A DNA stretch of 64,000 nt, from contig CALFMK010000001.1 in the NCBI GenBank assembly GCA_937879955.1, forward strand, positions 5,461 through 69,460. Reading direction: 5' to 3'. Shown here in pieces: positions 1,109-44,674 of the stretch. Numbering within the stretch: position 1 is the first letter of the stretch; each line of letters starts with the position of its first letter. The stretch is from an uncultured bacterium. Its GTDB lineage: Bacteria > Patescibacteriota > Minisyncoccia > Phycocordibacterales > Phycocordibacteraceae. The notes under the pieces were generated by a model. The model saw only the letters and a list, made by a program, of their open reading frames with translations, did no database searches and was not told the DNA's origin. Made by a program: the position numbers and the translations under genes.

Positions 1109-1599
1109 CTCTGAAGGATCAGGAGACGCAGGACGGGATCGCTGGGCGCGACCCCGTCCTGCCGATATTCCTGCGCGGAACGATGCGCACAGGAATCTAT
1201 CGAGGGTGCGAGCCACCTGCCAGAGGCAGACAGCGGTGCCGCTTCCGCTCGGGTGAGGGCACCATACCACATAAAGAAATCCGCCTCACTGATGAGGCGG
1301 ACTGGACAAGGAAAGAGCGGGGAAGCCGGGCGCAGAACGGAAGCTGCTCGCTAGAGGGAGGAACGAGCTTTCTCCATTCTGCGCCGGGCCCGCGCTTGTC
1401 GTCGCTGGCGGGGCTCATTTCGCCGGCGACTGGCGCGTCGTGCCGGAAGATACGAGGGGTACTCCCGGCACGTGCATCCTCCCATAGGCAGGGCGAGCGT
1501 CAAGCGATGCGGGAAGTCGTATCCATTCGCGCACCGCACCACGATTCCCGGGTCCGTCTATGGGTCAAAAAACGGCCTCACGAAAGGCTTTTTCGAAGT

Positions 1600-1780
1600 T
1601 GTGTCTTGCCTCTGTCCGGGAACGTTTCGTGCTGGTTTATGCACAAGGAAGATTGGGTGAAGAGCCCGTATCATACGTAGGTCAACGCAGCCGAATGCAG
1701 TCGGAAGGATGCGGCGGGACGCGCTACGGCGCCCCCGAACGCGGTCCGAAGTGGAGCGAAAACCCTGCCAGCGTCCGAAG
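1600..1780 (+). promoter_or_regulatory. candidate cobalamin (B12) riboswitch in the nrdA leader
   Basis: AAGGAAGAUUGGGUGAAGAGCCCG (1645-) resembles the conserved GGGAAnnnGGUGnnAAnCCnG core. CAGUCGGAAGG resembles the GGGAAGG element. AGCGAAAACCCUGCC (1755-1769) resembles the B12 box AGCCnGGAGACCUGCC. It sits directly upstream of nrdA. Matching was done by eye against the remembered consensus only. Confidence 0.45.
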
Positions 1781-1830
1781 CCAAGGCTGACTTATAAATG
1801 TGCCGTGTAACCTACGGGATTACCTACCAT

Positions 1831-4719
1831 ATGAAGCAGGTCAAGAAGCGGAACGGGAGCATCGTCGACTTCGAGGCGACGAAGATTACTGACGCATTGC
1901 GAAAATCCTTCGCGTATTGCGAGGTCGCGATAGACGAGGCGGGGCTCGAGACGCTCACCAAGGGCGTCCTTGAGGACCTCTCGGCGAAGTTCGGCGACGA
2001 GGCGACTCCCTCCGTGGAGCATGTACAGGACCTGGTAGAGCTCGCGCTCATGGAGGCGGGCTACCTCACCGTGGCGAAGCACTACATCGTGTACCGCTAC
2101 GAGCATGCGAAGGTCCGCGAGGAGAAGAAGCAGGAGACCCTCGAGAAGATCGAGGAGGAGGGTCTCCTCATCACCACCGCGTCCGGGAAGCAGGAGCGCT
2201 TCAACGAGACCAAGCTCCGCCAGACCCTCGAGCATCTCGCGAAGGAGGACCAGATGGCGGGCATCGACATCGACCACATCCTCTCCCAGCTCAAGTACGA
2301 GCTCTATGAGGGTATGACCACGGCCGAGGTGGGGAAGGCGCTCATCATGGTGGTCCGCTCGATGATCGAGCGCGACCCGGCGTACTCGCGCCTGGCCGCC
2401 CGTCTCCTCCTGAACCGTCTCTACGCCGAGGTCTTCGGCACGGAGTTCGACAGCAAGAACCCGTACGATTCCGTCGAGCGCGTGTTCGAGGCGAACATGA
2501 AGCGGCTTGTGGCGAACGGCGACCTCGACGAGCGCATGGCCGAGTTCGACCTGAAGAAGCTCGCGCGCGCGATGAAGCTCGAGAACGACCAGCTCTTCGA
2601 GTACATGGGCCTCGAGATCATGATCAGCCGCTACTGCATGGAGGACCCGAAGGCCAAGCGCACCCTCGAGATCCCGCAGATGCTCTGGATGCGCGTGGCC
2701 ATGGGCCTCGCCATCGCCGAGAAGCCGGAGGACCGCGAGCGCGTGGCGCTCGAGTTCTACGACGCGCTCTCGAACTTCTACTACACCCCGGGCGGCCGCA
2801 CCCTCTTCCAGGCAGGCGCGAAGAAGGCGCAGCTTTCCAACTGCTTCCTCAACACCGTGCCTGATTCCCTCGAGGGCATCTTCAAGTCCATCTCGGACAA
2901 CGCCCAGTACCTGAAGTGGTCGGGAGGCACCGGCACCGACTGGACCCCGGTCCGCGCGACGGGTTCCTTCATCAAGGGTACCGGCGTGCCTTCCCAGGGC
3001 ATCGTGCCGTTCCTCAAGATCGCGAACGACGTGAACCTCGCCATCAACCGCTCCGGCAAGCGCCGCGGCGCCGGCTGCGTGTACCTCGAGACCTGGCACC
3101 ACGACATCGAGGACTTCCTCGAGCTCCGCAAGAACACCGGAGACGAGCGCCGCCGCACGCACGACATCAACACCGCGAACTGGATCCCGGACCTGTTCAT
3201 GAAGCGGGTGCGCGACAACGGCATGTGGACCCTCTTCAGCCCGAGCGAGGTGCCTGACCTCCACGACCTCTACGGCGCAGCCTTCGAGAAGCGCTACATG
3301 GAGTACGAGGCTATGGCGGACGCGGGCGGCATGGAGCTCTGGAAGCGCATCCCGGCGACCGACCTCTGGAAGAAGATGATCGGCATGCTCTTCGAGACGG
3401 GTCATCCATGGATCACCTGGAAGGACCCGATCAACGTCCGCTCCCCGCAGGATCACGCGGGCGTCGTGCACAACTCGAACCTCTGCACCGAGATCACCCT
3501 CAATACGAACGAGGACGAGACCGCCGTCTGTACGATCGGCTCCCTCAACTTCGCGAAGTTCGTCGTTACCGGCGAGGACGGCGTGGCTCGCTTCGACCAC
3601 GAGCTCGTGGCGCGCTACACGCGCATCGCGATCCGCATGCTCGACAACGTCATCGACCTCAACTTCTATCCGACGGAGGACGCACGTCGCGGCAACACCC
3701 GCCACCGTCCGGTGGGCCTCGGCGTCCGCGGCTACCATGACGCGCTCTACGGCCTGAACATCCAGTTCGACTCGCCTGAGGCGCTCAACTTCGCCGACGA
3801 GAGCATGGAGGTCGTCGCGTACTACGCGATCCTCGGCTCGTCCGAGCTCGCGAAGGAGCGCGGCACCTACTCGACCTACAAGGGATCGAAGTGGGACCGG
3901 GACATCTTCCCGCAGGACACCCTCGACCTCCTCGAGAAGGAGCGCGGCGAGTCCGTGAAGCTGAAGCGCGGCGGCAAGCTCGACTGGACCCCGGTCCGCG
4001 AGCACGTGAAGAAGTACGGCATGCGCAACAGCAACACCATGGCGATCGCGCCGACCGCGTCGACCGCGAACCTCGTCGGCTGCATCCCGTGCGTCGAGCC
4101 GATCTACAAGAACATCTACGTGAAGTCGAACAAGGAAGGGGAGTTCGTCGTCGTGAACAAGTACCTCGTCGAGGACCTCAAGAAGGCGAACCTCTGGAGC
4201 GCCGGCATGCTCAACCGCATCAAGTACGCGGACGGCAGCATCCAGGGCATCATCGAGATTCCGCGCGCGCTCCGCGAGAAGTACAAGGAGGTCTTCGAGA
4301 TCGACGGCAAGTGGCTCGTCGAGGCGGCGGCTCGTCGCGGCAAGTGGATCGACCAGTCCCAATCCCTGAACATCTTCTATAACGGAACCTCCGGAAAGGA
4401 CCTCTCCGACATCTACTTCCTCGCGTGGGAGATGGGCCTCAAGACGACCTATTACCTCCGCACCCTCGGCGCGTCCCAGGTTGAGAAGGCGACCGTCTCG
4501 ACCGTTGAGTACGGCTCGACCCACATCCGCGGAGGATCGACCCTCGCTGAGGTCGCTGCTGCGACCGTCGTAGAGGAGGTGGCCGTCGCGGCCCCGGTTA
4601 TCGAGGAGGTGCCCGCGCTCAGCGTCCCGAGCGGATTCTCGGCTGCGGAATGGCAGGCCAAGATGGCTCGCGTCGCCGCAGGCGAGGAGGCGGGCGTGTG
4701 CGAATCGTGCGAAAGCTAA
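1831..4719 (+). CDS. nrdA: ribonucleotide-diphosphate reductase large subunit, class Ia
   Basis: N-terminal ATP-cone (KRNGSIVDFEATKITDAL), a class I catalytic core (NLCTEI region) and a C-terminal Cys pair (CESCES). Followed by nrdB. Start moved from track position 1798 to the ATG at 1831, where the ATP-cone begins. Confidence 0.93.
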   Translation: MKQVKKRNGSIVDFEATKITDALRKSFAYCEVAIDEAGLETLTKGVLEDLSAKFGDEATPSVEHVQDLVELALMEAGYLTVAKHYIVYRYEHAKVREEKKQETLEKIEEEGLLITTASGKQERFNETKLRQTLEHLAKEDQMAGIDIDHILSQLKYELYEGMTTAEVGKALIMVVRSMIERDPAYSRLAARLLLNRLYAEVFGTEFDSKNPYDSVERVFEANMKRLVANGDLDERMAEFDLKKLARAMKLENDQLFEYMGLEIMISRYCMEDPKAKRTLEIPQMLWMRVAMGLAIAEKPEDRERVALEFYDALSNFYYTPGGRTLFQAGAKKAQLSNCFLNTVPDSLEGIFKSISDNAQYLKWSGGTGTDWTPVRATGSFIKGTGVPSQGIVPFLKIANDVNLAINRSGKRRGAGCVYLETWHHDIEDFLELRKNTGDERRRTHDINTANWIPDLFMKRVRDNGMWTLFSPSEVPDLHDLYGAAFEKRYMEYEAMADAGGMELWKRIPATDLWKKMIGMLFETGHPWITWKDPINVRSPQDHAGVVHNSNLCTEITLNTNEDETAVCTIGSLNFAKFVVTGEDGVARFDHELVARYTRIAIRMLDNVIDLNFYPTEDARRGNTRHRPVGLGVRGYHDALYGLNIQFDSPEALNFADESMEVVAYYAILGSSELAKERGTYSTYKGSKWDRDIFPQDTLDLLEKERGESVKLKRGGKLDWTPVREHVKKYGMRNSNTMAIAPTASTANLVGCIPCVEPIYKNIYVKSNKEGEFVVVNKYLVEDLKKANLWSAGMLNRIKYADGSIQGIIEIPRALREKYKEVFEIDGKWLVEAAARRGKWIDQSQSLNIFYNGTSGKDLSDIYFLAWEMGLKTTYYLRTLGASQVEKATVSTVEYGSTHIRGGSTLAEVAAATVVEEVAVAAPVIEEVPALSVPSGFSAAEWQAKMARVAAGEEAGVCESCES

Positions 4720-4767
4720 TAGCTGGCACAAAGGCTGACTTACAAGAAGCGTTAACACTCGCGAACT

Positions 4768-5802
4768 ATGCCCATCAACAAAGGTGCTGCTCCCGTGAAC
4801 ATTAACAACCGCAGGATCATCAACGGCGGAGACGCCGACGTGATGCAGCTCTACCCGATGAAGCACACGTTCGCGTGGGACGCGTACATGGCGGGTAACA
4901 GCAACCACTGGCTTCCGACGGAGATCAGCATGCAGCGCGACATCGAGCAGTGGAAGTCGACGACCGTGCTCTCGGACGACGAGCGCAGGGCGTTCGAGAC
5001 CGTGCTCGGATTCTTCACCACGGCCGATTCGATCGCCGCGAACAACATCGTGCTCGCCATCTACAAGCACATCACGAGCCCGGAGTGCCGCATGTACCTC
5101 CTGCGCCAGGGATACGAGGAGGCGATCCATACGCACGCGTACCAGTACATCGTGGAGTCGCTCGGCATGGACGAGTCGAAAATCTTCAACATGTACCGCG
5201 AGGTGGAGGCGATCTACAACAAGGACAACATGGTGCTGCGCCTCAACGAGGGCATCTTCTCGCCGGACTTCAAGACCGGCACGCTCGAGAACGACCAGCT
5301 CTTCGTGGAGAACCTCTGCGTCTTCTCGCTCATCATGGAAGGCATCTTCTTCTACAGCTCGTTCGCCGTCATGTTCGGCTTCCAGCGCCAGAACAAGCTC
5401 ACGGGCGCCGCGGAGCAGATCCAGTACATCATGCGCGACGAGTCCCAGCACCTTAACTTCGGCGTGAACCTGATTAACACGATCAAGGAGGAGCAGCCTG
5501 AGGTGTGGACCCCTGAGTTCCAGGAGCGCATCATCGGCATGGTGAAGCGCGCGGTGCAGCTCGAGTACGAGTTCGCTACCACGGTCTTCCCGAAGGGCAT
5601 CTTCGGCATGAACGCAGCAGGCTTCAAGCAGTACATCGAGCATATCGCCGACCGCCGTCTCGCGTCGGTAGGCCTTCCGGCGCAGTACAACGTCGAGAAC
5701 CCGTTCCCGTGGATGGGCGAGGCGGTGGACCTGAACAAGGAGAAGAATTTCTTCGAGACCCGCGTGACCGAGTACAAGACGGGCGGGCAGTTGAGCTGGT
5801 AA
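4768..5802 (+). CDS. nrdB: ribonucleotide-diphosphate reductase small subunit, class Ia
   Basis: Di-iron and radical-site motifs FFTTADSI (Asp ligand), EEAIHTHAYQY (ExxH plus Tyr at +7) and MRDESQHLNF. Confidence 0.93.
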   Translation: MPINKGAAPVNINNRRIINGGDADVMQLYPMKHTFAWDAYMAGNSNHWLPTEISMQRDIEQWKSTTVLSDDERRAFETVLGFFTTADSIAANNIVLAIYKHITSPECRMYLLRQGYEEAIHTHAYQYIVESLGMDESKIFNMYREVEAIYNKDNMVLRLNEGIFSPDFKTGTLENDQLFVENLCVFSLIMEGIFFYSSFAVMFGFQRQNKLTGAAEQIQYIMRDESQHLNFGVNLINTIKEEQPEVWTPEFQERIIGMVKRAVQLEYEFATTVFPKGIFGMNAAGFKQYIEHIADRRLASVGLPAQYNVENPFPWMGEAVDLNKEKNFFETRVTEYKTGGQLSW

Positions 5803-5824: not shown

Positions 5825-5851
5825 AGCGCTCCTTTACGGGAGTGCTTTGTT
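5825..5851 (+). terminator. intrinsic terminator after nrdB
   Basis: AGCGCTCC-TTTAC-GGGAGTGCT hairpin followed by TTGTT. Confidence 0.55.
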
Positions 5852-5863
5852 ATACTAATTCCG

Positions 5864-8257
5864 ATGAAACACGTGGGAAGGCTTCTGGTACTGCTTTTTG
5901 GTGCTTTTATCTTTCCGGGGATGGTCTCTGCAGCCACCTACTACGTTGATGCGACTCTCGGTAATAATTCGAATAACGGCACTGCCGCTAGTACCTCGTG
6001 GCAGACGCTCGCCAAAGTAAACGGCACTACATTCTTGGCTGGCGATAATATCCTCTTTAAGAAGGGAGAGACGTTTACTGGTGTGCTCGTAGCAGGCCAG
6101 AGTGGCACTAATGGGAATCCAATCACGTACGGCTCATATGGGGAGGGTGCGCGCCCAATTATTAATGCCGCTGGAAATAATCATGGATTCGACATCCGGA
6201 CAGGTAAGTCTTATATCAATGTAGCTGGCCTCGAAGTTCGAAACGCGACCTTGAACCAGTTTCTTCTGTTCGCTAATAGTTCGAATATATCGCACGTGTC
6301 CATCCAGGACTCGATAGCTGTAGGGGGAACGAGCGGATTCAATTTACAGGGACCAGGAACGTTTCTAGACATAACAATAAGTAGCAGTACCGCAAGCGGG
6401 TACGCGGGAGGTTCTGCGGTTGGTGTTCGCCTTGGTTCAGGAACCACTTTTGATGGAATTACTCTCGATGGAGTATCGGCGGCTTCTGGAAGTGGGTATC
6501 AGGGCTTCAGTACTGGATCGGGAACCTATTCAAATATTTCGATACTGAACTCATCGTTCACTGGGCATCCATCAAACGGTATTGCGTTTCTGTCTGCAAC
6601 GACGACTAACGTGGTCATTAGGGATACTGTAGCGAGCTTGAATGGAGGAAGTGGGATTTATTTCTTTGGTGTGAAGAGTGGAGTTGAGATTGATAACGTA
6701 ACAGCAAACTCAAATACCCAAAACGGAATAGGATTTGAAGCTGGTGCCATGAATCACATATCAATCGAAGACTCCGAGTTCAACAATAATGGACTTAATG
6801 GAATCGCACTTCTCGGAAGCGGAACCGGAACGTCAACAATCGTTTCTCGGTCGATTGCGTCTGGTAATGATAATGACGGTTTTAATATCTCTGGAAACTG
6901 GCAGAATGTCGTATTCGAGGAAGCGATCGCAAGTGATAATGGTGTAGATGGTATTGGCTCGAACGGAGACGGCTTCAGCTTTCACAACTCGAGCACCGGT
7001 GTAATTAGGAATAGCCAGGCACATAATAATTGGAAGTCAGCCGTAACAAACGTGAATACATCGAGCACGACGGTATATAACAACCTCTTTTCGCATGACA
7101 CCAACGGAACGAATGCCCTCATCACATTCCTAGACAGCGGAAGCCATGCTGCTTACAACAATGTGCTCTATAGCCCTGCACAGGTGGGGTATGGATTGGT
7201 CGCGAATGGTACAACGACACTCATAGCGAGGAATAATATTATTCAAGGTTTTCAGTACGGCGTATCGAAGGGGACGAATGCCTTCTTGGTAGAAGATTAC
7301 AATGACGTTTATGGAGCCAGTACGGCCTCCTACATTGGGCTTACTGGAGGTGTACATTCTATCTCTGTGAATCCAAAGTTTGTCGACGCTGAGGATGATG
7401 ATTTCCGACTACTTCAGTCCTCTCTTGCTATAAATGCAGGTACTACGACGCCCTATGTAACCGATTACCTCGGAAATCCACGCGTCGGCATTCCGGATAT
7501 GGGTGCATATGAGTATCAGGGAATACCTGATATAACAGCACCTTCTATCTACATAATTGCACCAGTGGATCCGGCTACGATATCTGGAACTGTAATTATT
7601 ACCGCATCAGCGACGGATGCTATCGGCGTAGAAGAAGTCGAATTTTTTCTAGATGGAGTATCGCTCGGGGATGATGCATCTGATCCTTATTCATTTTCAT
7701 GGAACTCATCTGCAGTTCCCGATGGCGTATACTCACTTCTCGCAGTTGCACATGATGCTGAAGGGAATTATGCCACCTCCTCTCCTGTCTCCGTCACGGT
7801 CTCGAATGTAATTCAGGAAGCGAGCCATCGCTCTGGTAAGTCCGGTCAGAGTGTCGTACGCACTATCTCTCCGCTCGCAGATTCTGTATTAAATGAAGGA
7901 GAAGCAAAGATATCATCAATAAATCGGCTCATACTCGATAATCGCGCACTTTTTATGCTTGCGCAGGAAAAGGGAATAGTAGTTCCTGAATTCATACTCA
8001 ATATGCTCGATCTCCCTTCGGGCTCGACCATTTCGATATTCTTTAATCGTCCTCTTGCGCTTGGAGCAACTGGCCCAGATGTCACTGCACTCCAGCAGAT
8101 TCTTAAGGATAAGGGCTTCTATGTTTATCAGGAGATAACCGGCTACTACGGACAAGCCACACTACAAGCTGTTGCTGACTACCAGAAGTCACTTGGGCTC
8201 GAATCTCTCGGGTATGTAGGTCCAGCAACAAGGGAAGCCTTGAATGCTGGGATTTGA
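5864..8257 (+). CDS. secreted parallel beta-helix repeat protein with Ig-like module and C-terminal peptidoglycan-binding domain
   Basis: Signal peptide MKHVGRLLVLLFGAFIFPGMVSA. About 400 aa of G/N/S/T-rich repeats (..NGI.F..) typical of right-handed beta-helices. Ig-like segment VEEVEFFLDGVSLGDDASDPYSFSWNSSAVPDGVYSLLAVAHDAEGN. PG_binding_1-like tail GATGPDVTALQQILKDKGFY..GYYGQATLQAVADYQKSLGL. Lies in the low-GC island. Confidence 0.8.
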   Translation: MKHVGRLLVLLFGAFIFPGMVSAATYYVDATLGNNSNNGTAASTSWQTLAKVNGTTFLAGDNILFKKGETFTGVLVAGQSGTNGNPITYGSYGEGARPIINAAGNNHGFDIRTGKSYINVAGLEVRNATLNQFLLFANSSNISHVSIQDSIAVGGTSGFNLQGPGTFLDITISSSTASGYAGGSAVGVRLGSGTTFDGITLDGVSAASGSGYQGFSTGSGTYSNISILNSSFTGHPSNGIAFLSATTTNVVIRDTVASLNGGSGIYFFGVKSGVEIDNVTANSNTQNGIGFEAGAMNHISIEDSEFNNNGLNGIALLGSGTGTSTIVSRSIASGNDNDGFNISGNWQNVVFEEAIASDNGVDGIGSNGDGFSFHNSSTGVIRNSQAHNNWKSAVTNVNTSSTTVYNNLFSHDTNGTNALITFLDSGSHAAYNNVLYSPAQVGYGLVANGTTTLIARNNIIQGFQYGVSKGTNAFLVEDYNDVYGASTASYIGLTGGVHSISVNPKFVDAEDDDFRLLQSSLAINAGTTTPYVTDYLGNPRVGIPDMGAYEYQGIPDITAPSIYIIAPVDPATISGTVIITASATDAIGVEEVEFFLDGVSLGDDASDPYSFSWNSSAVPDGVYSLLAVAHDAEGNYATSSPVSVTVSNVIQEASHRSGKSGQSVVRTISPLADSVLNEGEAKISSINRLILDNRALFMLAQEKGIVVPEFILNMLDLPSGSTISIFFNRPLALGATGPDVTALQQILKDKGFYVYQEITGYYGQATLQAVADYQKSLGLESLGYVGPATREALNAGI

Positions 8258-8284
8258 ATTCTTCTAGAGGACGGCGATAATAAA

Positions 8285-8500
8285 CTATATATAACGTTTA
8301 ATTATCTCAACACTGCCCAAGGTCAGTATGTCTCTACCGACCACTCCGTTCTTACGGGTACTAATTACTTTAATAGCTTCTCGTTCGAGAAAGTACATTA
8401 CCGCAGTGTTCAGAATTAAATTCCTATCCCTCTCCTCTGTAACTAGTAAATCAATCGTTTCAAGGACATCCTCTGGAATATCAAGATTAATTTTAGACAC
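8285..8500 (-). CDS. ribbon-helix-helix (CopG-like) small DNA-binding protein
   Basis: KINLDIPEDVLETIDLLVTEERDRNLILNTAVMYFLERE follows the RHH strand-helix-helix pattern. GTG start, no obvious SD, 23 nt after the upstream ORF. Low GC. Confidence 0.55.
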   Translation of the reverse strand: MSKINLDIPEDVLETIDLLVTEERDRNLILNTAVMYFLEREAIKVISTRKNGVVGRDILTLGSVEIIKRYI

Positions 8501-8523
8501 TGTAAATTCTAAAAATTAAAGCT

Positions 8524-9003
8524 CTAGCTGAACTTCAGCATTTTCGTTTCTAAATTTTCCAGCAATATCTGATAACGCGCATCGAGAGGATTTAACTTGT
8601 AACGTATTTGACGTATAACGATTTTGTATAATTTCCCAACTTGCCCTCGCGTTTCTATACGAATACGGAAGGCTGCTGTCATTCCTGTTGGTATCTTGCA
8701 GTAAACTATCGTGCCTAGGGCAACTTGAGTTATGTTCTCTCCTCGGCATGAAATATCAGTTTTTAATATTGAACTCTGAGCCGTTCCTTCAATCTGATAT
8801 ACAAAACCGGTTGGCTTCTTGCCCGAGGCAACCGAAAGAGGAACGTATAGATCTTTCCGAGGAGCAGTTATGTTAATGATAAATATAAAATTCCCGATTA
8901 CGCGGTCAGGTCCATTAGGAATTCGCGTTCTCCTAAGATTCTCTTCAGTGTCTTTAATATCGACCAAGACATCTTTCTCCGGTGGAATGATTGGTTTATC
9001 CAT
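8524..9003 (-). CDS. hypothetical protein (low-GC island)
   Basis: 159-aa ORF co-oriented with and immediately upstream of the RHH gene. I recognise no motif. Confidence 0.5.
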   Translation of the reverse strand: MDKPIIPPEKDVLVDIKDTEENLRRTRIPNGPDRVIGNFIFIINITAPRKDLYVPLSVASGKKPTGFVYQIEGTAQSSILKTDISCRGENITQVALGTIVYCKIPTGMTAAFRIRIETRGQVGKLYKIVIRQIRYKLNPLDARYQILLENLETKMLKFS

Positions 9004-9116
9004 ATAATCAGATAGCTCTTTGTATAAGATCAGTATGGGTTTAGGAATATGAAAAATATCTCAAAATTGCATAAAGTAATTATGGAGACAGTGGCAGAAA
9101 GCTGATCTAGTCACTT

Positions 9117-9148
9117 CGAAAAGAAGCACCGGACCACATGTCCGGTGC
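9117..9148 (-). terminator. intrinsic terminator (minus strand) after the 9182-9484 gene
   Basis: GCACCGGAC-ATGTG-GTCCGGTGC on the minus strand, followed by TTCTTTTCG. Confidence 0.6.
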
Positions 9149-9181
9149 TAACTAATATGAATCCTATAAGAAAGAGGCAAA

Positions 9182-9484
9182 TTACTTCTTACCCCAGCGC
9201 CATGATGGCTCTTCGCCAAAGCGTAGGCAGATCCGGTAGAGGGAATAGGAAAGAAGGGCGATAACGCCTGTGAACTCTAAGACTCCGAAAATGATGTCCC
9301 GGGCCCCTACATGGCTCTCGACCGCGGCACCGACCCATCCGAAGAATATAAGGAAGGCGAAGGTGAAGAGGAGGGCATAGAAGACCGTCACGGCCCATCC
9401 CTGCCATGAGACAGGGAACCAGCCCCACCCGAATTCCTTCGCCCGGAACCACAGCTTCCGGGCCTTCCTTTTGTGTTCGCTCAT
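9182..9484 (-). CDS. small integral membrane protein
   Basis: 100 aa with two or three hydrophobic helices (WAVTVFYALLFTFAFLIFFGWVGAAV, IIFGVLEFTGVIALLSYSLY). Confidence 0.6.
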   Translation of the reverse strand: MSEHKRKARKLWFRAKEFGWGWFPVSWQGWAVTVFYALLFTFAFLIFFGWVGAAVESHVGARDIIFGVLEFTGVIALLSYSLYRICLRFGEEPSWRWGKK

Positions 9485-9643: not shown

Positions 9644-10258
9644 ATGCCAGTTATTGCAGTAGTAGCCCTTATGGGCTTCCTGTTTTTACCGGGTAGCGCA
9701 GGAGCGCCGGCACAAGCGGAGACGATTTCCGCGCCGGTCGCGATAGCGGGGGCGGCTGAAGAGCCTTCCAAACGCCTGGCCACCTCGAAAGAGGCGGCCC
9801 GGACCTACCAGGTAAGTATGACCGCTTACAATGCCGTTCCCGGCCAGACGGATGCCAACCCATTCGTCACCGCGAGCGGCATGGCCTCGAATCACGAGGT
9901 TGTGGCTGCGCGATCGCGCGATATGGCGGCTGAACTCCCGTTCGGCACCGTCATACGCTTCGAGCGCTCGACGAAGGACACGCCTTCGTGCCGTTTCGGC
10001 GAAGTCGAGCACTTGATGGGGTACCGCATCATCGCGGACACCATGCATGAGCGCTGGAGCCACAAGGTGGACGTGCTCTTCGACCAGACCGATACGGTCA
10101 TGGTCGAGGGACGCATCGTCAACCCGGCGCTCGCCCTCGGTATCTGCGACGACGTGACGATCACGGTCGTGGGAACTGTCGATATGACGGATCCGCCGAC
10201 CACGCAGGCCGAGCTCGCGGCGATGTTCGCCACGCCGACCTACGCGATAGCGAAATAA
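9644..10258 (+). CDS. secreted 3D-domain (RlpA/MltA-like double-psi beta-barrel) cell-wall protein
   Basis: Signal peptide, then YQVSMTAYNAVPGQTDANPFVTASG, the hallmark of 3D-domain proteins. TTGACA-N17-TACTAT promoter at about 9583-9611. Confidence 0.75.
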   Translation: MPVIAVVALMGFLFLPGSAGAPAQAETISAPVAIAGAAEEPSKRLATSKEAARTYQVSMTAYNAVPGQTDANPFVTASGMASNHEVVAARSRDMAAELPFGTVIRFERSTKDTPSCRFGEVEHLMGYRIIADTMHERWSHKVDVLFDQTDTVMVEGRIVNPALALGICDDVTITVVGTVDMTDPPTTQAELAAMFATPTYAIAK

Positions 10259-10330
10259 ATGAATCTCCTTCATGAAGAGTCCTGCTCGTAAGAGCCGGGC
10301 TCTTCTTACGTTTGGTATACTGAACCCAGT

Positions 10331-11578
10331 ATGAACATCACCCCGAAGATCCTCGTCGCAGCCGCGCTCATGGCGACGTTCGCGGTCGCAGGCGCTATGC
10401 CCGCTACCGCGCTCGCGGCAAGTAGCAGGTCCTCCTCAAAATCCTCGATAGAGATATCGGGATGGATCCCGTACTGGAGGACGGAGCTCGGCACGAAGGA
10501 CGCGAAGGCGCACATCTCGCAGATGGCAGAGGTGAACCCGTTCGGCTACACGGTGACGAGTACCGGGAATCTGAACGACGCCATGAAGATCGGCGGCGCC
10601 GACTGGCAGAGCCTCATCGCAGCCGCGAAGAAGAAGGGCGTGAAGGTCATCCCGACGGTCATGTGGAGCGATACGGCGTCCATCTATAGCGTCCTCTCGA
10701 ACCCGGTCACGCGCGCGTCGCACGTGAAGGCTATCGCGAAGGCCGTTAAGGACAACGGCTTCGACGGCATCGACATCGACTACGAAGGCAAGACCGCGGA
10801 GACCCGCGTCTACTTCTCTGCGTTCCTCGCCGAGCTCAAGGCCGAGCTCGGCCGCAGCAAGCAGCTCGACTGCACCATCGAGGCCCGCATGCCGCTCGAG
10901 GCGCGCTTCTCGGGAACTCCTCCGGCGAACATCGAGTACGCGAACGACCTCCCGGAGATCAACAAGAGCTGCGATCGCGTGCGCATCATGACCTACGACC
11001 AGCAGACCGCAGACCTGCAGCTGAACGCATCGGCACGCCGCGCAGGCGAGATCTATGCGCCTGTGGCGGACGTGAAGTGGGTGGAGAAGGTCGTTGAGTA
11101 CATGGGCAAGGATATCGACAAGAAGAAGATGGTCCTCGGCGTCCCGACGTACGGCTATATCTACCAGATCATGCCGAACTCGGATGGCAGCGGCTACGGC
11201 TACACGAAGCTCGAGGCCTTCAATCCGGCGTACGCGACGCAGCTCGCGAAGGAGCTCGGCATCACGCCGGAGCGCAACCGCGCGGGCGAGATGTCCTTCA
11301 GCTACGTGCCGAAGGACCAGCCGGCCTCGCTCCCGACGCAGAGCGCGCTCTCGCGGCTCGCGCCGCGGAGCACCTCGTCGGCGAGCCTCGCTGCCGCAGG
11401 TGCCCTCGCGCTTGCGAAGAGCAAGAAGCAGCAGGCCCCGTTCGAGTACATCACCTGGAGCGACGCGGGCGCGATCAAGCAGAAGGTGGACCTCGCGAAG
11501 AAGATGAAGCTCGCGGGCGTGGCGGTCTTCAAGATCGACGGAGGATCCGACCCGAAGATGTGGGACGTGCTGAAGTAG
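10331..11578 (+). CDS. secreted glycoside hydrolase family 18 protein
   Basis: Signal peptide and the GH18 catalytic motif FDGIDIDYEG. TATACT lies 9 nt upstream of the ATG. Confidence 0.85.
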   Translation: MNITPKILVAAALMATFAVAGAMPATALAASSRSSSKSSIEISGWIPYWRTELGTKDAKAHISQMAEVNPFGYTVTSTGNLNDAMKIGGADWQSLIAAAKKKGVKVIPTVMWSDTASIYSVLSNPVTRASHVKAIAKAVKDNGFDGIDIDYEGKTAETRVYFSAFLAELKAELGRSKQLDCTIEARMPLEARFSGTPPANIEYANDLPEINKSCDRVRIMTYDQQTADLQLNASARRAGEIYAPVADVKWVEKVVEYMGKDIDKKKMVLGVPTYGYIYQIMPNSDGSGYGYTKLEAFNPAYATQLAKELGITPERNRAGEMSFSYVPKDQPASLPTQSALSRLAPRSTSSASLAAAGALALAKSKKQQAPFEYITWSDAGAIKQKVDLAKKMKLAGVAVFKIDGGSDPKMWDVLK

Positions 11579-11622
11579 AACGTGAGACACGAGAAAAGCC
11601 CCTGCGCGAGCGGGGGCTTTTC

Positions 11623-11970
11623 CTATTCCGTCGTTTGCTGGATGTCCTGCGTCTGTTCGTCGAGCATGTCGATGAGTGCGGCGTAATAGGTCGGACGCGT
11701 AGCAACCTTCTCTTCCGTAGCTGCGTTAATCGCGCGTATCGCGTCCTCGAGCGTGAATCCGGCAATAGCGGCCCGCGTCTCTTCCTTGCGTGCATCGCTC
11801 CAGAGGGACATATCGGCGCCGGGCCCGTACGTCTCGCCGACCATTCGTCGCACGCTCGCTTCCTTCGCCATGTCCAGAGCGCCGGTCTCTGCGGCCGGAC
11901 TCTCGGAGAGGTTGTCATTCGCTGCGGCATTCGGGAACTGCAGGATCTTTCCGAACGGTCTTCCTTCCAT
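11623..11970 (-). CDS. hypothetical protein
   Basis: Track ORF 11623-12060 trimmed to the internal ATG (MEGRPFGKILQFPN...) because the upstream part overlaps the VanY gene. TAGGAT lies 10 nt upstream. Confidence 0.5.
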   Translation of the reverse strand: MEGRPFGKILQFPNAAANDNLSESPAAETGALDMAKEASVRRMVGETYGPGADMSLWSDARKEETRAAIAGFTLEDAIRAINAATEEKVATRPTYYAALIDMLDEQTQDIQQTTE

Positions 11971-11992
11971 GGGTATGTAAATCCTAGTAGTG

Positions 11993-12874
11993 CTAATCGA
12001 ACAGCTCCGCAAGGTACTCGTCGATGGTGCGCTGGTCGAGGTCGTAGAACCACGCGTCATCGTCGTGCAGCCGCTCGGCGAGGTCCCTGCCTACGAAGCG
12101 CCAGTGCCACGGCTCGTACTGGTAGTACGTGTTGCCCTTGGGGTAGGAGAGCACAAAGCCGTACTTCCAGGCGTTCTTCGTGAGCCATTCGTACTCCTCG
12201 GTCTTGTCGAAGCCAGCGAACGTTCCGCCCACCGTCGTCGTCGTGAAGTCGACGGCGGTGCCGAGCTGGTGCTCGGAGTAGCCCTGATCTGCGGAGAACG
12301 AATTGGCTCCGGACCCGTACTTCACGGTGTAGCCGGACTTGAGCGACGCCTGGTTCGCGAACGAGCGGTACGAGGACGCCACCTTGAGGTCGAGGCCGTC
12401 CTCCTTCGCGTCGTCGAGCAGGTCCTCGAGGAACGGGTCTACGTCGGCATGTATCTCGTACGCGCGTCCCTCCTGGAACGCGTACGCGGCATCGATAACG
12501 GTCAGTCTCGACGGGACGTAGTTCTCGTTCAGGAAGTAGACCTTCGAGTACTTCGCGAGCAGCTCGGGATCGGTCTTCGCGAGCTTCTCGAGGGTCCCTA
12601 CGGTCCCCGAGAGGTCCTTGAGCTGGCTCTCGAACTTACCGTTCTTCTGCTGCTCGCGCCGGAGCTCCCCGGCGAGGCTGATGCTCTCCTCGGTCTTCTC
12701 GCCGAGCTTTCCGGTAAGCTCGGCCTCCTTCGCCTCGGCCGTCGCACGGGCCTCGGTAAGCGCGCTCTTCGCCGCCGCCAGCTCTGACGAGAGGGAATAG
12801 AGGCCGTACATCGCGAACCCTGCGAGCGCGAGGACGACGAGGCCGATGAGTGCGAGAAGGGTGCTGCGGGACAT
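11993..12874 (-). CDS. D-alanyl-D-alanine carboxypeptidase, VanY/M15B family, membrane-anchored with coiled coil
   Basis: N-terminal TM helix, a coiled-coil segment, then M15B motifs SSYRSFANQ, SEHQLGTAVD and EPWHWRF. Confidence 0.85.
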   Translation of the reverse strand: MSRSTLLALIGLVVLALAGFAMYGLYSLSSELAAAKSALTEARATAEAKEAELTGKLGEKTEESISLAGELRREQQKNGKFESQLKDLSGTVGTLEKLAKTDPELLAKYSKVYFLNENYVPSRLTVIDAAYAFQEGRAYEIHADVDPFLEDLLDDAKEDGLDLKVASSYRSFANQASLKSGYTVKYGSGANSFSADQGYSEHQLGTAVDFTTTTVGGTFAGFDKTEEYEWLTKNAWKYGFVLSYPKGNTYYQYEPWHWRFVGRDLAERLHDDDAWFYDLDQRTIDEYLAELFD

Positions 12875-35025: not shown

Positions 35026-35460
35026 ATGTTCATCGGAGAATACCGCCACACTCTGGACGCGAAGAACCGCCTCTCGCTCCCGGCGAAGTTCCGCAAGGAG
35101 CTCGGCTCTTCGGTGATCGTGACGCGTGGTCTCGACCACTGCCTCTTCGTGTACCCGAAGGCGGCATGGAAGAAGGAGGCGCAGAAGTTCGCGGAGCACT
35201 CCTCGGGCGGACAGGCCGGCCGCGCGTTCGCGCGCCTCATGCTCGCGGGCGCGAACGAGGTCGACGTCGATACGGCCGGCCGCGTGCTCGTGCCTGACTA
35301 CCTCAAGACCTACGGCGCCCTCACGGGGAAGTGCGTGGTCGCGGGCGTCTCGGACCGCATCGAGATCTGGGACGAGGCGGCATGGGAGACCTACACGAAG
35401 GAGATCGAGCGCGATGCCGATTCCTTCGCGGAGACCCTCGGGGCCAAGGCGCTCGCATAA
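35026..35460 (+). CDS. mraZ: division/cell wall cluster transcriptional regulator MraZ
   Basis: Two SpoVT/AbrB-like halves, DAKNRLSLPAKFR and DTAGRVLVPDYLK. Start trimmed to MFIGEYRH at 35026. Confidence 0.9.
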   Translation: MFIGEYRHTLDAKNRLSLPAKFRKELGSSVIVTRGLDHCLFVYPKAAWKKEAQKFAEHSSGGQAGRAFARLMLAGANEVDVDTAGRVLVPDYLKTYGALTGKCVVAGVSDRIEIWDEAAWETYTKEIERDADSFAETLGAKALA

Positions 35461-35464
35461 CGGT

Positions 35465-36427
35465 ATGGATATGGCACCGGTACAGCGTCACGACACCGTC
35501 CTCCTCAAGGAGGCGGTCGACGCGCTCGAGGTCACGGCCGGCGACGTCGTCGTCGACGCGACGCTCGGCGGGGCAGGGCACTTCGGGGCGCTCCTCGCGC
35601 TGCTTGGCAAGGAGGGCACGCTCGTCGGCATCGACGCGGACAAGGATGCGCTCGTGCGCGCCCAGGCGGTCGTGGATGCGGTTCCGGAGGACGTCCGTCC
35701 GACGGTGCACCTCGTGAACGGGAACTTCCGCGACCTCGCGGTGATCCTCGACGAGCTCGAGCTCACGCCGACGAAGGTCCTCTTCGACCTCGGCTGGAGC
35801 GCCTTCCACCTCACGAGCGGGCGCGGCTTCTCGTTCCGTACGGACGAGCCGCTCCTCATGACCTACGGCGATCCTGAGGGCGTAACGACGGCAGCCGACC
35901 TCGTGAATCATCTCTCGGAGTCCTCGCTCGCCGATCTGCTCTGGTCGCTCGGCGAGGAGCGCTTCGCCCGGTCCATCGCGAAGTCCATCGTCGCCGTGCG
36001 CGAGGAGAAGCCGATCGAGACCACCGCGGACCTCGTCGCCGCGATCGGCGAGGGCGCGCCGTCCTGGTACCAGCATCGCAAGATCCATCCCGCCACGAAG
36101 ACCTTCCAGGCGCTCCGCATCGCCGTGAACGACGAGCTCGGCGCGCTGCGCGAGGGCCTTTCGGTGGCGCTAGAGCGGGTGCCTGCGGGCGGCCGCGTCG
36201 CCGTCATAACCTTCCACAGCACCGAGGACCGCATCGTGAAGACGATGCTCCGCGAGGCGGTGGACGAGGGGAGAGGGACGCTCGCGTCCCGGAAGCCGGT
36301 GGCGCCGTCGGCTGCCGAGCTCGAGAAGAACCCTCGGGCCCGCAGCGCGAAGCTCCGGACGTTCGTCGCCGGTGCGCCTGCCGTTAAGAACCGTATCAAC
36401 CTGACCTCATTTCCAGCCTATGCCTAA
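35465..36427 (+). CDS. rsmH: 16S rRNA (cytosine1402-N4)-methyltransferase
   Basis: VVDATLGGAGH, FDLGWSAFHL and ITFHSTEDRIVK. Start at the ATG at 35465 within the longer track ORF. Confidence 0.92.
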   Translation: MDMAPVQRHDTVLLKEAVDALEVTAGDVVVDATLGGAGHFGALLALLGKEGTLVGIDADKDALVRAQAVVDAVPEDVRPTVHLVNGNFRDLAVILDELELTPTKVLFDLGWSAFHLTSGRGFSFRTDEPLLMTYGDPEGVTTAADLVNHLSESSLADLLWSLGEERFARSIAKSIVAVREEKPIETTADLVAAIGEGAPSWYQHRKIHPATKTFQALRIAVNDELGALREGLSVALERVPAGGRVAVITFHSTEDRIVKTMLREAVDEGRGTLASRKPVAPSAAELEKNPRARSAKLRTFVAGAPAVKNRINLTSFPAYA

Positions 36428-36698
36428 GCTCGCCATCCCCGTCCTCGGATACTCCATCGCCGCCCTCGTCGCGACGTACCTCGTCCTGATCGTGGCCACG
36501 GTCTCGATGGCGGCATGGCAGACGAACCTCGCCATGGAGGTGCATGAGACCGAGTCGGACATCGCACGCCTCGAGTCCCGCTACTACGACATGGTGGCGC
36601 AGATCGACCGCCGGGACCCGGCGAGCATGGGCTTAGTCGCGCCGAAGGCCGTCTCCTACGCGCCGACGAAGGCCGCGCCGACATTCTCGCTCCGCTAG
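36420..36698 (+). CDS. ftsL: FtsL-like small bitopic division protein
   Basis: 92 aa with a single TM followed by a short coiled-coil-like segment. Its position lies between rsmH and ftsI. Confidence 0.55.
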   Translation: MPKLAIPVLGYSIAALVATYLVLIVATVSMAAWQTNLAMEVHETESDIARLESRYYDMVAQIDRRDPASMGLVAPKAVSYAPTKAAPTFSLR

Positions 36699-36702
36699 TC
36701 CT

Positions 36703-38430: not shown

Positions 38431-38433
38431 ACC

Positions 38434-39717
38434 ATGAAAACCTTCCTGAAGTCCGTCGTCGCCATGCTCCTCGCGGTCCTCGCGAAAGCGGTTGTGCGCA
38501 AGTACCGCCCGCTCGTCGTGATGGTGACCGGAAGCGTCGGGAAGACCTCCACGAAGGATGCGCTCGCGTCCGTGCTCGCCGCCCGCTACCACCTGCGCGC
38601 GAGCGAGAAGAGCTATAACAGCGAGTTCGGCGTCCCGCTCACGATCCTCGGCAGCAAGAACCCGTGGGAGAAGCCGGCGGCATGGCTGCGTGTGGTCGAG
38701 GAGGCGTTCGCGCTCCTCCTCCTTCCGAACCATTACCCGAAGCTCCTCGTGCTCGAGGTGGGTGCGGACCGTCCCGGCGATCTCGCGCGCATCCTGCGCA
38801 TCGTGCGCCCTGACGCGGTGGTGGTCACGCGCCTGCCGGACGTGCCGGTGCACGTGGAGGCGTACGCGAGTCCGCAGGCCGTGCGCGACGAGGAGTTCAC
38901 GCCTGCCTATGCGCTCATCGCGGGCAGCCCGCTCGTGGTCTCCGCCGACGATCCGAACGCCATGACCATGGCGAGCCTGCTGCCGCTCTCCATTAGCACC
39001 TTCGGCTTCTCGGACGGCAGCGACGTCAGGCTCGAGGGGTACTCGTTCTTCGAGGACGGGGAGGTCTGCGGCATGGAGGCCACGCTCAACGTGCGCGGCA
39101 CCTCCTGCACGCTGCGGGTGCCGGGCGCGCTCGGGAAGAGCCAGCTGTACGCGCCTGCCGCCGCCATCGCCTGCGCGCTCACCCTCGACCTCACGCTCGA
39201 AGAGGCACTCAAGGGTGCGGAGAGCTACGTGCCGCCGGCCGGCCGCGGCCGCATCCTGGCCGGCAAGAACGGCTCGCTCCTCATAGACGATTCCTATAAC
39301 GCCTCCCCGGCCGCGGTCGAGGAGGCGCTTTCCGCGCTCCAGCTCCTGACGGGCCGCAAGCGCCGCATCGCGGTGCTCGGCGACATGCTCGAGCTCGGCC
39401 GGTACTCGGCGGAAGAGCACGAGCGCGTGGGAGCGCTCGCGGCAGGGAAGGTGGACGTGGTGGCCGCGGTAGGGACCCGCTCCCGCGCTACCGCCGCCGC
39501 CGCGATCAGCGCCGGGATGAAGGAAGAGGCCGTGTTCTCGTTCGATACCGCGAAGGACGCGGCAGACATGCTCGAGGGCTTTCTCGAGGAGGGGGACGCG
39601 GTGCTCGTGAAGGGCTCGCAGGGCATCCGTACGGAGCGGGTCGTGGAGCGCCTCCTCAAGGACCCGGCTGACTTGCCGAAACTGGTGCGTCAGGAGCGGG
39701 AGTGGAAGAGGCGATAG
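38434..39717 (+). CDS. murF: UDP-N-acetylmuramoyl-tripeptide--D-alanyl-D-alanine ligase
   Basis: Mur ligase P-loop TGSVGKTSTKD. C-terminal domain DDSYNASP...VLGDMLELG. Confidence 0.88.
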   Translation: MKTFLKSVVAMLLAVLAKAVVRKYRPLVVMVTGSVGKTSTKDALASVLAARYHLRASEKSYNSEFGVPLTILGSKNPWEKPAAWLRVVEEAFALLLLPNHYPKLLVLEVGADRPGDLARILRIVRPDAVVVTRLPDVPVHVEAYASPQAVRDEEFTPAYALIAGSPLVVSADDPNAMTMASLLPLSISTFGFSDGSDVRLEGYSFFEDGEVCGMEATLNVRGTSCTLRVPGALGKSQLYAPAAAIACALTLDLTLEEALKGAESYVPPAGRGRILAGKNGSLLIDDSYNASPAAVEEALSALQLLTGRKRRIAVLGDMLELGRYSAEEHERVGALAAGKVDVVAAVGTRSRATAAAAISAGMKEEAVFSFDTAKDAADMLEGFLEEGDAVLVKGSQGIRTERVVERLLKDPADLPKLVRQEREWKRR

Positions 39718-39771
39718 ATTGACTTTCTATTTTAGATACGTATAGTTCAGGCAGAAGAAAAGGAGCATCAG

Positions 39772-40179: not shown

Positions 40180-40189
40180 ATGGAAACGA

Positions 40190-40217: not shown

Positions 40218-40221
40218 TGCT

Positions 40222-44673: not shown

Positions 44674-44674
44674 G

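Follow-up and report, generated by a model that had tools for sequence, protein, structure and literature searches.

The window (the whole 64 000-nucleotide stretch of DNA analysed here) belongs to a CPR bacterium of the Paceibacterota, as its DnaB is 87–90% identical to those of Ca. Paceibacterota MAGs. Genes for PBPs, a Mur ligase and VanY in the window indicate that this host has a peptidoglycan wall. Next to nrdB lies a short segment of foreign composition, which encodes a large β-helix protein and two small proteins. The features of this segment are as follows.

5851 to ~9114, no strand assigned: low-GC genomic island of 3.3 kb, flanked by two convergent host genes, nrdB and the gene of a 100-residue membrane protein
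5851–5856, plus strand: TATACT, a hexamer resembling a −10 element and ending 7 nt ahead of the ATG, as in a leaderless-type start (direct reading of the sequence)
5864–8257, plus strand: coding sequence of a 797-residue, predicted secreted β-helix/Ig/PG-binding protein (open reading frame, Pfam, homologues, AF2 model)
5864–5932, plus strand: Sec-type signal peptide, residues 1–23, with predicted cleavage after VSA (translation read directly)
5933–7519, plus strand: right-handed parallel β-helix, residues 24–552, with an N-cap YYVDAT...GETF and a choice-of-anchor-Q C-cap D-x-GAYE
6866–7102, plus strand: polar stripe D338, D362, N367, D369, H374, R382, K391 and H411/D412, a candidate active or metal site (conservation, model)
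7541–7801, plus strand: Big_7 Ig-like spacer module, residues 560–646 (Pfam, match to PDB entry 9kvu)
7811–7915, plus strand: disordered linker, residues 650–684 (pLDDT ~28–29)
8060–8248, plus strand: PG_binding_1 three-helix peptidoglycan-binding domain, residues 733–795 (Pfam)
8285–8500, minus strand: open reading frame of 71 residues (GC3 0.36), 80% identical to its counterpart in the sister genome described below
8524–9003, minus strand: open reading frame of 159 residues, a rare conserved all-β protein (Ig-like sandwich)
9125–9149, minus strand: terminator-like hairpin of the host gene at 9182–9484, taken as the island's right-hand boundary

The GC content of the island is 0.447, compared with 0.634 in the remainder of the window. 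The contrast is sharper at third codon positions, where the β-helix gene has a GC3 of 0.43 against 0.92 in its neighbours, and the island reading frames together range from 0.36 to 0.43 against 0.72–0.92. None of 80 related nrdB loci carries the β-helix gene downstream of nrdB, and in the closest high-GC relative the same slot is occupied by a secreted subtilase + Ig protein. A donor-type homologue (P0002; 62% identity) has a GC content that fits that of its own Paceibacterota genome. The island was thus recently imported from a Paceibacterota lineage of lower GC content, and the horizontal acquisition proposed in the first-pass annotation holds, on the evidence of GC3, of the 80 loci that lack the gene and of an exchanged allele in a sister genome.

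This sister genome (L201) is an independent Logan assembly from run SRR14271336. Its flanks are 97–100% identical to those of the window, and an island with the same gene order stands at the same position; along the alignment the DNA identity of 0.91–1.0 drops at 5800 to ~0.5, and at 9200 it is back at 0.98. Its β-helix allele (P0004) is just ~50% identical to the 797-residue protein and the Ig module has been replaced altogether (4% identity over residues 556–650). The region of the polar stripe is 57–70% conserved, compared with 42–63% in the helix body (residues 118–330); the N-cap and the stripe region are the most conserved parts and the helix body, the Ig module and the linker the variable ones. 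Near-identical flanks and the same layout around a divergent allele with an exchanged Ig module establish that the locus is real and hypervariable. In exact look-ups against the contig index, the 100-residue host protein alone had a match; the 797-residue protein, NrdB, the 159-residue product and a 204-residue product had none.

Annotation with Pfam and PHROGs revealed no integrase or transposase within 5851–9114, a search for direct or inverted repeats flanking the island gave only matches of chance size, and the nearest tRNA is at 18770. No PADLOC defence model matches any island reading frame. Among the homologues, P0018 (locus L203) adjoins a tyrosine recombinase/integrase and the homologue at locus L202 adjoins a HigB/RHH toxin–antitoxin pair. 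The 71-residue product has no significant match in Pfam, PHROGs or PADLOC, and a reading of it by eye as a ribbon-helix-helix protein found no support in Pfam or in its resemblance to the RHH protein at locus L202. Neither small reading frame qualifies as a conserved partner (LnbY-like, immunity or chaperone) of the β-helix gene, as among the homologue loci both were found only at that of the sister genome.

The main reading frame starts with ATG and has exactly the span given in the first-pass annotation. An exact twin of the protein is recorded in the database on a 591 kb contig and graded homologues follow at 62, 48, 46, 45 and 39% identity, which together show that this is not a chance reading frame. 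The contig of the twin and the DnaB assignment also agree with the earlier suggestion of a small-genome organism. The proposed order of signal peptide, β-helix, Ig-like module and C-terminal PG_binding_1 domain is upheld by the AlphaFold2 (AF2) model and by domain calls that all exceed their curated cutoffs (Pfam gathering thresholds, NCBIfam): Beta_helix (PF13229) at 51.6 bits (cutoff 25.9), Big_7 (PF17957) at 67.5 bits (cutoff 24.1; E = 1.6e-18; residues 560–625), PG_binding_1 (PF01471) at 51.6 bits (cutoff 23; E = 1e-13; residues 736–793) and the NCBIfam choice-of-anchor-Q C-cap motif at 32.2 bits (cutoff 25; residues 513–552). Scanning a genome collection returned distant matches to the C-cap motif only. 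By direct reading of the translation, the N-terminus (MKHVGRLLVLLFGAFIFPGMVSA, with ATYY following the predicted cleavage site) is a Sec signal peptide; its residues 2–16 form a helix of low pLDDT in the model, and the junction SAATYYVDAT is kept in homologues.

The AF2 monomer model has a mean pLDDT of 86.9 and a pTM of 0.69. It displays an uninterrupted right-handed, three-stranded parallel β-helix over approximately residues 25–520 with pLDDT above 90; the β-helix anticipated from the sequence is therefore present, at a length of ~500 residues and not the ~400 first estimated. It is followed by the Ig sandwich (560–646), the disordered segment (650–684), short helices (685–714) and the three-helix bundle of the PG-binding domain (733–795; helices 738–749, 764–776 and 787–795), the interval between the Ig and PG-binding domains containing merely ~30 residues of low-confidence helix. 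The Ig module matches PDB entry 9kvu with 40% identity and a TMt of 0.85 and is nearest to modules from secreted polysaccharide-degrading enzymes (9kvu, CbhA). The PG_binding_1 domain matches PDB entries 4lpq (1.3e-9) and SleB (6tci; 1.6e-5); this domain is compatible with attachment to the wall of its own cell or of another, and does not specify which.

Inspection of the sequence upstream of the ATG at 5864 revealed no Shine–Dalgarno sequence, in agreement with the leaderless start, seven nucleotides behind TATACT, that had been described for this gene. A TANNNT element at −11 to −13 precedes 13 of the 64 genes of the window, compared with ~1 expected by chance. In another Paceibacterota genome (locus L001), the gene of the nearest homologue starts with the same TATACT-N7-ATG arrangement, and the leaderless start, which had been taken as a sign of domestication, is therefore no evidence for it. 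Given this identical arrangement and a codon usage wholly without amelioration, the promoter most likely arrived together with the gene. A literature search on leaderless promoters in Parcubacteria returned nothing.

Structure matches place the helix in the superfamily of polysaccharide lyases, hydrolases and tailspikes, as had been predicted. In the Foldseek comparison of the model, which the first-pass annotation had suggested, ranks 1–4 are all GH136 structures and stand above every tailspike. A profile of the family gives the same order: it matches GH136 TnX (7v6m) with E = 5e-25 (profile positions 3–525 against 7–577) and LnbX (5gqc) with E = 4e-22, followed by AlgE4 (5.5e-8) and the PL31 lyase PsAly (8.4e-8). 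The solved relatives detectable by sequence (GH136, AlgE epimerases and one PL31 lyase) are all enzymes. No lyase family model is passed by the 797-residue protein, which has no match at E ≤ 1 to Pel9A-like_beta_helix (PF22842), an assignment that is precomputed for the alleles P0004 and P0006.

Within the polar stripe, D338, D369 and H374 do not vary among 19 homologues, and K391 is at least 90% conserved. DSSP assignment on the model puts these residues on four consecutive coils, all in the turn that leads into the third strand. At position 367 the 797-residue protein has Asn where 16 of the 19 homologues have Asp; if Asp367 were catalytic, an allele with Asn at this position could be inactive. 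The conserved D362 and D369 are seven residues apart, and the acid/base and nucleophile of GH136 (D568 and D575 in ErLnb136) have the same spacing (PMC7335108). The full-length family profile aligns NGvDG..GaD.GDG with NGDGQPWDADYGDG of TnX at low HMMER posteriors, and a profile of the stripe segment alone recovered no GH136 and reached, weakly, only the generic coil motif of AlgE4. The search for catalytic residues proposed earlier has thus yielded a conserved stripe, and a firm residue equivalence with the GH136 Asp pair was dropped. Chemistry of the AlgE type was likewise rejected: the catalytic Tyr149 of AlgE4 aligns with Asp338, so the AlgE4 catalytic set is not conserved. As judged from the homologues and the model, the Asp/Asp/His/Lys stripe argues for catalysis.

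We consider it reasonably probable that the 797-residue protein is a secreted, wall-tethered surface enzyme that cleaves polysaccharide with its β-helix and is cargo of the recently imported island. The protein would be exported by the Sec pathway and would remain attached to a peptidoglycan wall by the PG_binding_1 domain at its C-terminus, while the 35-residue flexible linker and the Ig spacer would hold the ~500-residue β-helix off the wall. A polysaccharide chain most likely lies bound along the side of the helix and would be cleaved at the stripe formed by D338, D362, D369, H374, K391 and H411/D412. Cleavage could proceed either by hydrolysis with an Asp pair, as in its distant relatives in GH136, or by metal-assisted β-elimination with a Lys/His base, as in the PL9 and PL31 lyases. 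The gene arrived within the 3.3 kb island from the lower-GC lineage, and the island occupies a hot spot downstream of nrdB. That near-identical strains have different alleles at this position is consistent with diversifying selection acting on the glycan target of a surface enzyme. Attachment to, or degradation of, a host surface is a plausible candidate role.

A less probable reading, to be taken seriously nonetheless, is that of a non-catalytic adhesin or spacer, in which a ligand on the host surface would be bound by the β-helix as a rigid platform, in the manner of autotransporter passengers or of PfbA, which is sortase/LPXTG-anchored and non-catalytic. The PG-binding domain would then anchor the protein to its own wall, and the exchange of alleles would reflect changing binding specificity or evasion of immunity or phages. 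Against such a role, the invariant D338, D369 and H374 and the near-invariant K391 are gathered on one face, in a region that exceeds the rest of the helix in conservation; this would be unusual in a purely structural helix, and every solved relative within reach of sequence comparison is an enzyme.

The first-pass annotation had described the protein as tailspike- or depolymerase-like; as a statement of origin, namely capture of a phage tailspike or depolymerase from a prophage of which the island would be a remnant, this is very improbable. No PHROG matches the β-helix (endolysin families match the PG-binding module alone), tblastn against 50 697 phage genomes returned only cap and PG-binding fragments covering 13 and 8% of the protein, the island DNA matches nothing in the phage collection and IMG/VR contains distant relatives only. 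The signal peptide leads directly into the helix cap, with no virion-attachment domain, and Pfam, PHROGs and PADLOC detect no phage structural or phage-like gene in the island. The closest homologues sit among housekeeping genes of Paceibacterota chromosomes, and the nearest characterized family, ranked above every tailspike by Foldseek and by profile, is the cellular GH136.

Still less probable is a bona fide exo-glycosidase of GH136, of the lacto-N-biosidase type, even though GH136 structures give the top profile and Foldseek matches over the full length of the helix, the N- and C-cap motifs are shared and two Asp residues stand seven positions apart. The NCBIfam LnbX model (NF047897) scores 39.4 bits against a cutoff of 2500, and over residues 22–106 alone; the alignment of the catalytic region has low posteriors, and the segment-only profile misses GH136. 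GH136 enzymes are inactive without their partner GH136-I/LnbY (PMC8106489, PMC7335108), and no such partner, adjacent or fused, occurs here or at the six homologue loci L001, L082, L084, L086, L202 and L203, which also share no conserved neighbouring gene; here the neighbours are nrdB and the two unrelated minus-strand reading frames. The lineage, moreover, would seem to have no obvious milk or mucin glycan niche. Least probable of all is an assembly or binning chimera, in which the low-GC segment would be foreign to the genome: the abrupt jump in composition (GC3), the source in a metagenome-assembled genome and the lack of a match to the exact protein in the contig index would fit one, but the independent assembly reproduces flanks, gene order and position, and host sequence bounds the island on both sides within one contig.

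A life attached to other cells is assumed for CPR bacteria (Patescibacteria), but few of the molecules by which they select a host and open its surface are known. The locus provides a concrete candidate, a predicted secreted, wall-tethered β-helix with what appears from the model to be an enzyme-like conserved site, encoded by a gene that is exchanged among Paceibacterota lineages and differs between strains whose flanks are 97–100% identical. Should different alleles go with different hosts or glycans, the locus would serve as a marker of, and a handle on, host specificity in an uncultured phylum. The family could also bring a new activity into the GH136-related clade. Were the protein no more than an adhesin or a scavenging enzyme, its gene would be an ordinary accessory one. 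A more far-reaching reading, which we regard as speculative and rather unlikely, makes the family a partner-independent sister of GH136 and the cellular counterpart of a phage receptor-binding depolymerase: a wall-anchored, glycan-cleaving 'key' with which an episymbiont would recognize and open the surface polysaccharide of its host cell. Strains would exchange the specificity region of this key by recombination at a hot spot reserved for it, which would make the locus a determinant of host range.

Among known systems, the GH136 enzymes (LnbX of Bifidobacterium longum, TnX, BsaX and ErLnb136; 5GQC, 7V6M, 7V6I and 6KQS) share the right-handed β-helix, the N-cap YYV..G.D.N.GT....P..TL..(V/I)N......GD.(V/I)L...G..F and the C-cap SPAINAG...D..GN...G.PD(I/L)GA.E; in the central region, which aligns with low confidence, there are also two Asp residues seven positions apart. 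The identity is only 14–19%, and the 797-residue protein differs in its C-terminal Big_7 and PG_binding_1 modules, in having no LnbY/GH136-I partner and in its host, a member of the Paceibacterota and not one of the gut Actinobacteria or Clostridia. Lyases and epimerases of the pectin-lyase fold were also compared (PL9 Pel9A, 1RU4 and 5OLQ; PL31 PsAly, 6KFN; PL6; AlgE4, 2PYG). PL9 enzymes of the Pel9A type bind Ca2+ through a cluster of Asp residues and use a Lys as catalytic base; the conserved positions of the 797-residue protein include D338, D362, D369 and K391.

Phage tailspikes, capsule depolymerases and the β-helical tail proteins of Gram-positive phages (φ29 gp12, Andhra gp15, K1 lyase) also use a β-helix to recognize or cleave surface polysaccharide, PG-binding modules occur in phage lysins too, and the way in which close relatives trade the specificity region as a module is similar to the swapping of receptor-binding proteins; the sequence relationship, however, is limited to generic caps, and the context here is a cellular chromosome. 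PfbA of Streptococcus pneumoniae, whose PDB entries (4MR0, 3ZPP) call it an adhesin and a cell-wall surface anchor family protein, differs from the 797-residue protein, which has a non-covalent PG-binding domain at its end and a conserved acidic/basic stripe. In Paceibacteria, secreted proteins with PG-binding domains are highly expressed and have been proposed to function in host attachment (PMC10936435). The proteins described for Paceibacteria that parasitize archaea (Kuroda et al., 2024, mBio, PMC10936435), compared here by their description, share with the 797-residue protein the phylum-level lineage, secretion and the combination of PG-binding and Ig-like modules, and a role at the cell–cell interface has been proposed for them.

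The ORF at 5864–8257 on the forward strand starts with ATG and encodes 797 residues, exactly as read in the first-pass annotation, and the domain architecture assigned to it there agrees with three Pfam domains scoring above their gathering thresholds. By direct reading of the translation, residues 1–23 (MKHVGRLLVLLFGAFIFPGMVSA) are predicted to be a Sec signal peptide. A confident AlphaFold2 model (mean pLDDT 86.9), for which 29 homologues were used as input, contains the expected beta-helix, but at a length nearer to 500 residues than the 400 originally stated.

Features of the 797-residue protein
Beta_helix domain (Pfam, 51.6 bits)
Residues ~25–520, unbroken right-handed beta-helix (AlphaFold2, pLDDT >90)
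Residues 513–552, choice-of-anchor-Q motif (NCBIfam), the C-terminal cap usual for such beta-helices
Residues 560–625, Big_7 domain (Pfam, 67.5 bits)
Residues 560–646, Ig sandwich (AlphaFold2)
Residues 650–684, disordered linker (AlphaFold2)
Residues 685–714, a few low-confidence helices (AlphaFold2)
Residues 736–793, PG_binding_1 domain (Pfam, 51.6 bits)
Residues 733–795, peptidoglycan-binding three-helix bundle (AlphaFold2)

Structure searches confirmed the fold without picking out a single family: the matches included the epimerase AlgE4, phage K1 lyase, the non-catalytic adhesin PfbA, PL9 and PL6 lyases and GH141, GH110 and GH136 hydrolases. The first four Foldseek ranks are GH136 lacto-N-biosidase structures (E values of 5e-14 to 4e-12), followed by Pel9A, which upholds the earlier description of the fold as enzyme-like; tailspikes matched at 1e-6 to 1e-4. 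A helix-domain profile built from nine family members aligned end to end with the GH136 enzyme TnX (E = 5e-25; profile 3–525 against chain 7–577), and also matched LnbX (4e-22), AlgE4 (5.5e-8) and the PL31 alginate lyase PsAly (8.4e-8), with the similarity residing chiefly in the N- and C-caps. To judge by these profiles, sequence is more discriminating than structure search for kinship of the helix. In GH136, the acid/base and nucleophile aspartates lie seven residues apart (D568/D575 in ErLnb136; PMC7335108) and a helical partner is needed, which may be LnbY or a GH136-I domain fused to the enzyme (PMC8106489, PMC7335108). The studied family has a conserved pair, D362/D369, with the same spacing, a candidate equivalent in a segment that HMMER aligned to TnX NGDGQPWDADYGDG with low posteriors; a profile restricted to this segment does not recover GH136. 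Neither this locus nor six homologue loci contain a partner gene or domain, and the score against the curated NCBIfam LnbX model is far below its cutoff (39 bits versus 2500). We therefore do not file the protein as GH136. On sequence grounds, the family is best described as uncharacterised and distantly related to GH136.

A tailspike origin, as put forward in the first-pass annotation, finds no support in the predicted signal peptide at the N-terminus or in the viral searches, in which PHROGs matched only the peptidoglycan-binding module, tblastn against 50 697 phage genomes reached no more than 13% and 8% of the protein, the island DNA had no match in phage genomes and IMG/VR held only distant relatives, mostly matched in the N-cap. 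The protein could be an enzyme or a non-catalytic scaffold or adhesin. D338, D369 and H374 do not vary among 19 homologues and conservation of K391 is at least 90%, with D362, R/K382 and H411/D412 likewise well conserved. The model places all of these residues in the turn that precedes the third strand, on four successive coils (strands 340–342, 369–373, 392–396 and 420–422), so that they form one line on one face of the helix, the layout of active sites in beta-helix proteins. The same fold also serves adhesins, PfbA among them; the protein passes no curated enzyme family model, and residue 367 (codon 6962–6964), within a GxDGDG motif, is Asn here and Asp in 16 of the 19 homologues, a substitution that could affect activity. 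P0004, the allele of the sister genome, has Asp at this position. The stripe region (57–70% identity) and the N-cap (72–79%) are the best conserved parts, whereas the helix body (118–330; 42–63%), Ig module and linker are variable or replaced. Weighing these arguments, we predict, with somewhat better than even confidence, that the beta-helix is catalytic; Asp-pair hydrolysis and metal-assisted beta-elimination are both candidate chemistries.

The suggestion of a small-genome, possibly episymbiotic host is right at the level of lineage, because DnaB is 87–90% identical to proteins named Candidatus Paceibacterota, the housekeeping genes of the window are the reduced set usual for such organisms, accompanied by genes for wall synthesis (MraW, two PBPs, a Mur ligase and VanY), and a database entry identical to the studied protein lies on a 591-kb contig. 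In composition the gene is foreign to this host, with a GC of 0.47 and a GC3 of 0.43 against 0.90–0.92 in the flanking nrdA, nrdB and GH18 genes. It belongs to a low-GC block (~5851 to 9114) bounded by terminator-like hairpins, that of nrdB on one side and that of the gene for a 100-aa membrane protein (o100) on the other, which also holds two minus-strand ORFs.

8285–8500 (−), 71-aa ORF, GC3 0.36
Within the island (−), 159-aa ORF, GC3 0.38

The 71-aa ORF resembled a ribbon-helix-helix protein by eye, but has no significant Pfam match and shows no similarity to the RHH antitoxin beside the homologue P0006. The island adjoins a conserved host cluster of secreted and wall-active proteins (9644–12874): a 204-aa signal-peptide protein (o204; weak phrog_24247 match, 3D-domain-like motif by eye only), a chitinase-like GH18 enzyme and a VanY D,D-carboxypeptidase. 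A second lower-GC stretch at ~62400–64000 (0.44–0.55 versus ~0.63; ORFs of 121, 95 and 80 aa) may be another island running past the window end.

None of 80 metagenomic loci with related NrdB (56–90% identical) has a beta-helix gene after nrdB. Several have the host order without the island: L124 (nrdB, o100, o204, GH18, VanY) and L127, L128, L130 and L132, in which o204 follows nrdB within a few hundred bases. L121, the closest relative of high GC (NrdB 90%), has the slot filled by a gene of native GC for a secreted 593-aa subtilase (1195–2976, forward strand; Peptidase_S8 and a bacterial surface Ig-like domain), and the site seems to attract various secreted hydrolases as a hot spot. The sister genome (L201), an independently assembled contig from another sequencing run retrieved by way of an identical copy of the 100-aa host protein, has the same order at the same site (nrdA, nrdB, beta-helix/peptidoglycan-binding gene, 71-aa ORF, 159-aa ORF, o100), which rules out an assembly chimera. 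DNA identity is 0.97–1.00 in nrdB to ~5500, 0.91–0.92 to ~5800, about 0.5–0.7 across the beta-helix gene, 0.78–0.90 over the two small ORFs and 0.98–1.00 from 9200 on, and the island begins and ends where GC content shifts. The proteins agree with this profile (NrdB 99.4%, o100 100%, 159-aa ORF 84%, 71-aa ORF 80%), and the island is therefore real; P0004 is 47–78% identical by region, with an 87-aa insertion and a replaced Ig module. A different allele has thus been re-supplied at the locus in one of two otherwise nearly identical genomes. Alien GC3, absence from the 80 related loci and this allele swap together bear out horizontal acquisition. A second variable spot lies only 1 kb away from the island: between the 204-aa gene and GH18, L201 has an additional low-GC insert of ~1.2 kb (3983–4790) with two ORFs, one of 153 aa (UCP014422) and one of 97 aa, and the corresponding site in the window lies between ~10270 and ~10268–10330.

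The closest homologue (P0002; 62% identity) comes from a genome of ~49% GC and agrees with it in composition (gene 0.489, flank 0.496); AtpA of that genome is 86–87% identical to Patescibacteria/Paceibacterota proteins. The exchange was therefore within the phylum, from a lower-GC lineage. Homologues occupy parts of Paceibacterota chromosomes that vary: P0002 and P0003 are flanked by ddl and yceG/ATP synthase, and P0009 by a Mur ligase gene and yqeY, in a genome that shares synteny with the window. P0018 adjoins a tyrosine recombinase (L203 8598–9707, minus strand; Arm-DNA-bind_3 and Phage_integrase) and P0006 a HigB-like toxin/RHH_1 antitoxin pair (L202 2616–3110, minus strand), neighbours that point to small mobile islands as carriers. 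Window positions 35126–50427 are syntenic with GCA_964567265.1 (core proteins 42–65% identical; MraW, small ORF, PBP, Mur ligase ... YqeY, P-type ATPase, RmuC); the stretch in between varies, with three paralogous OmpR-type response regulators and TruB in the window, and a beta-helix/peptidoglycan-binding paralogue beside an 801-aa GDSL/SGNH hydrolase in the other genome.

The gene has TATACT at 5851–5856, 7 nt before the ATG, and no Shine–Dalgarno sequence ahead of the ATG. A TANNNT hexamer 6–7 nt ahead of the start codon occurs in 13 of 64 window genes, dnaB and cysS included, with about one expected by chance, so the comparison with leaderless host genes was sound. The domestication read from it was not, as the same TATACT-N7-ATG precedes P0002 in the genome to which that homologue belongs, and codon usage of the window gene shows no amelioration at all. 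Most likely the promoter came along with the gene, and it would work because donor and recipient share transcription and translation habits. The host pattern is a (G)GTAnAAT-like TANNNT exactly 6 nt before ATG, as at the starts of 52098–53468 (−), 53481–54941 (−), 49351, 60304 and 45251–45706 (−), among others. The hexamer stands at −12 in nine window genes and at −11 to −13 in 13 of 64, and other host genes have GGAGG Shine–Dalgarno sites.

Following Sec export and signal-peptide cleavage, the C-terminal domain would dock non-covalently to peptidoglycan, either that of the organism itself, which has its own wall genes (PBPs, Mur ligase and VanY), or that of a bacterial partner; the modelled linker and Ig spacer would hold the helix outward, and the helix may then bind a polysaccharide and cleave it at the stripe. 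The allele swap suggests diversifying selection on the target, which fits specificity for host-surface or environmental glycans and equally fits an adhesin. The protein is of a known kind, secreted surface proteins that join a carbohydrate-active or adhesive beta-helix to a module for wall binding, and its interest lies mainly in the exchange of alleles between strains of a CPR organism. The functional idea is not new, because an attachment role was proposed earlier for secreted Paceibacteria proteins with peptidoglycan-binding domains (PMC10936435); what is new is the family of the beta-helix, the fact that it is distantly akin to GH136 yet lacks the partner, and its hypervariable island.
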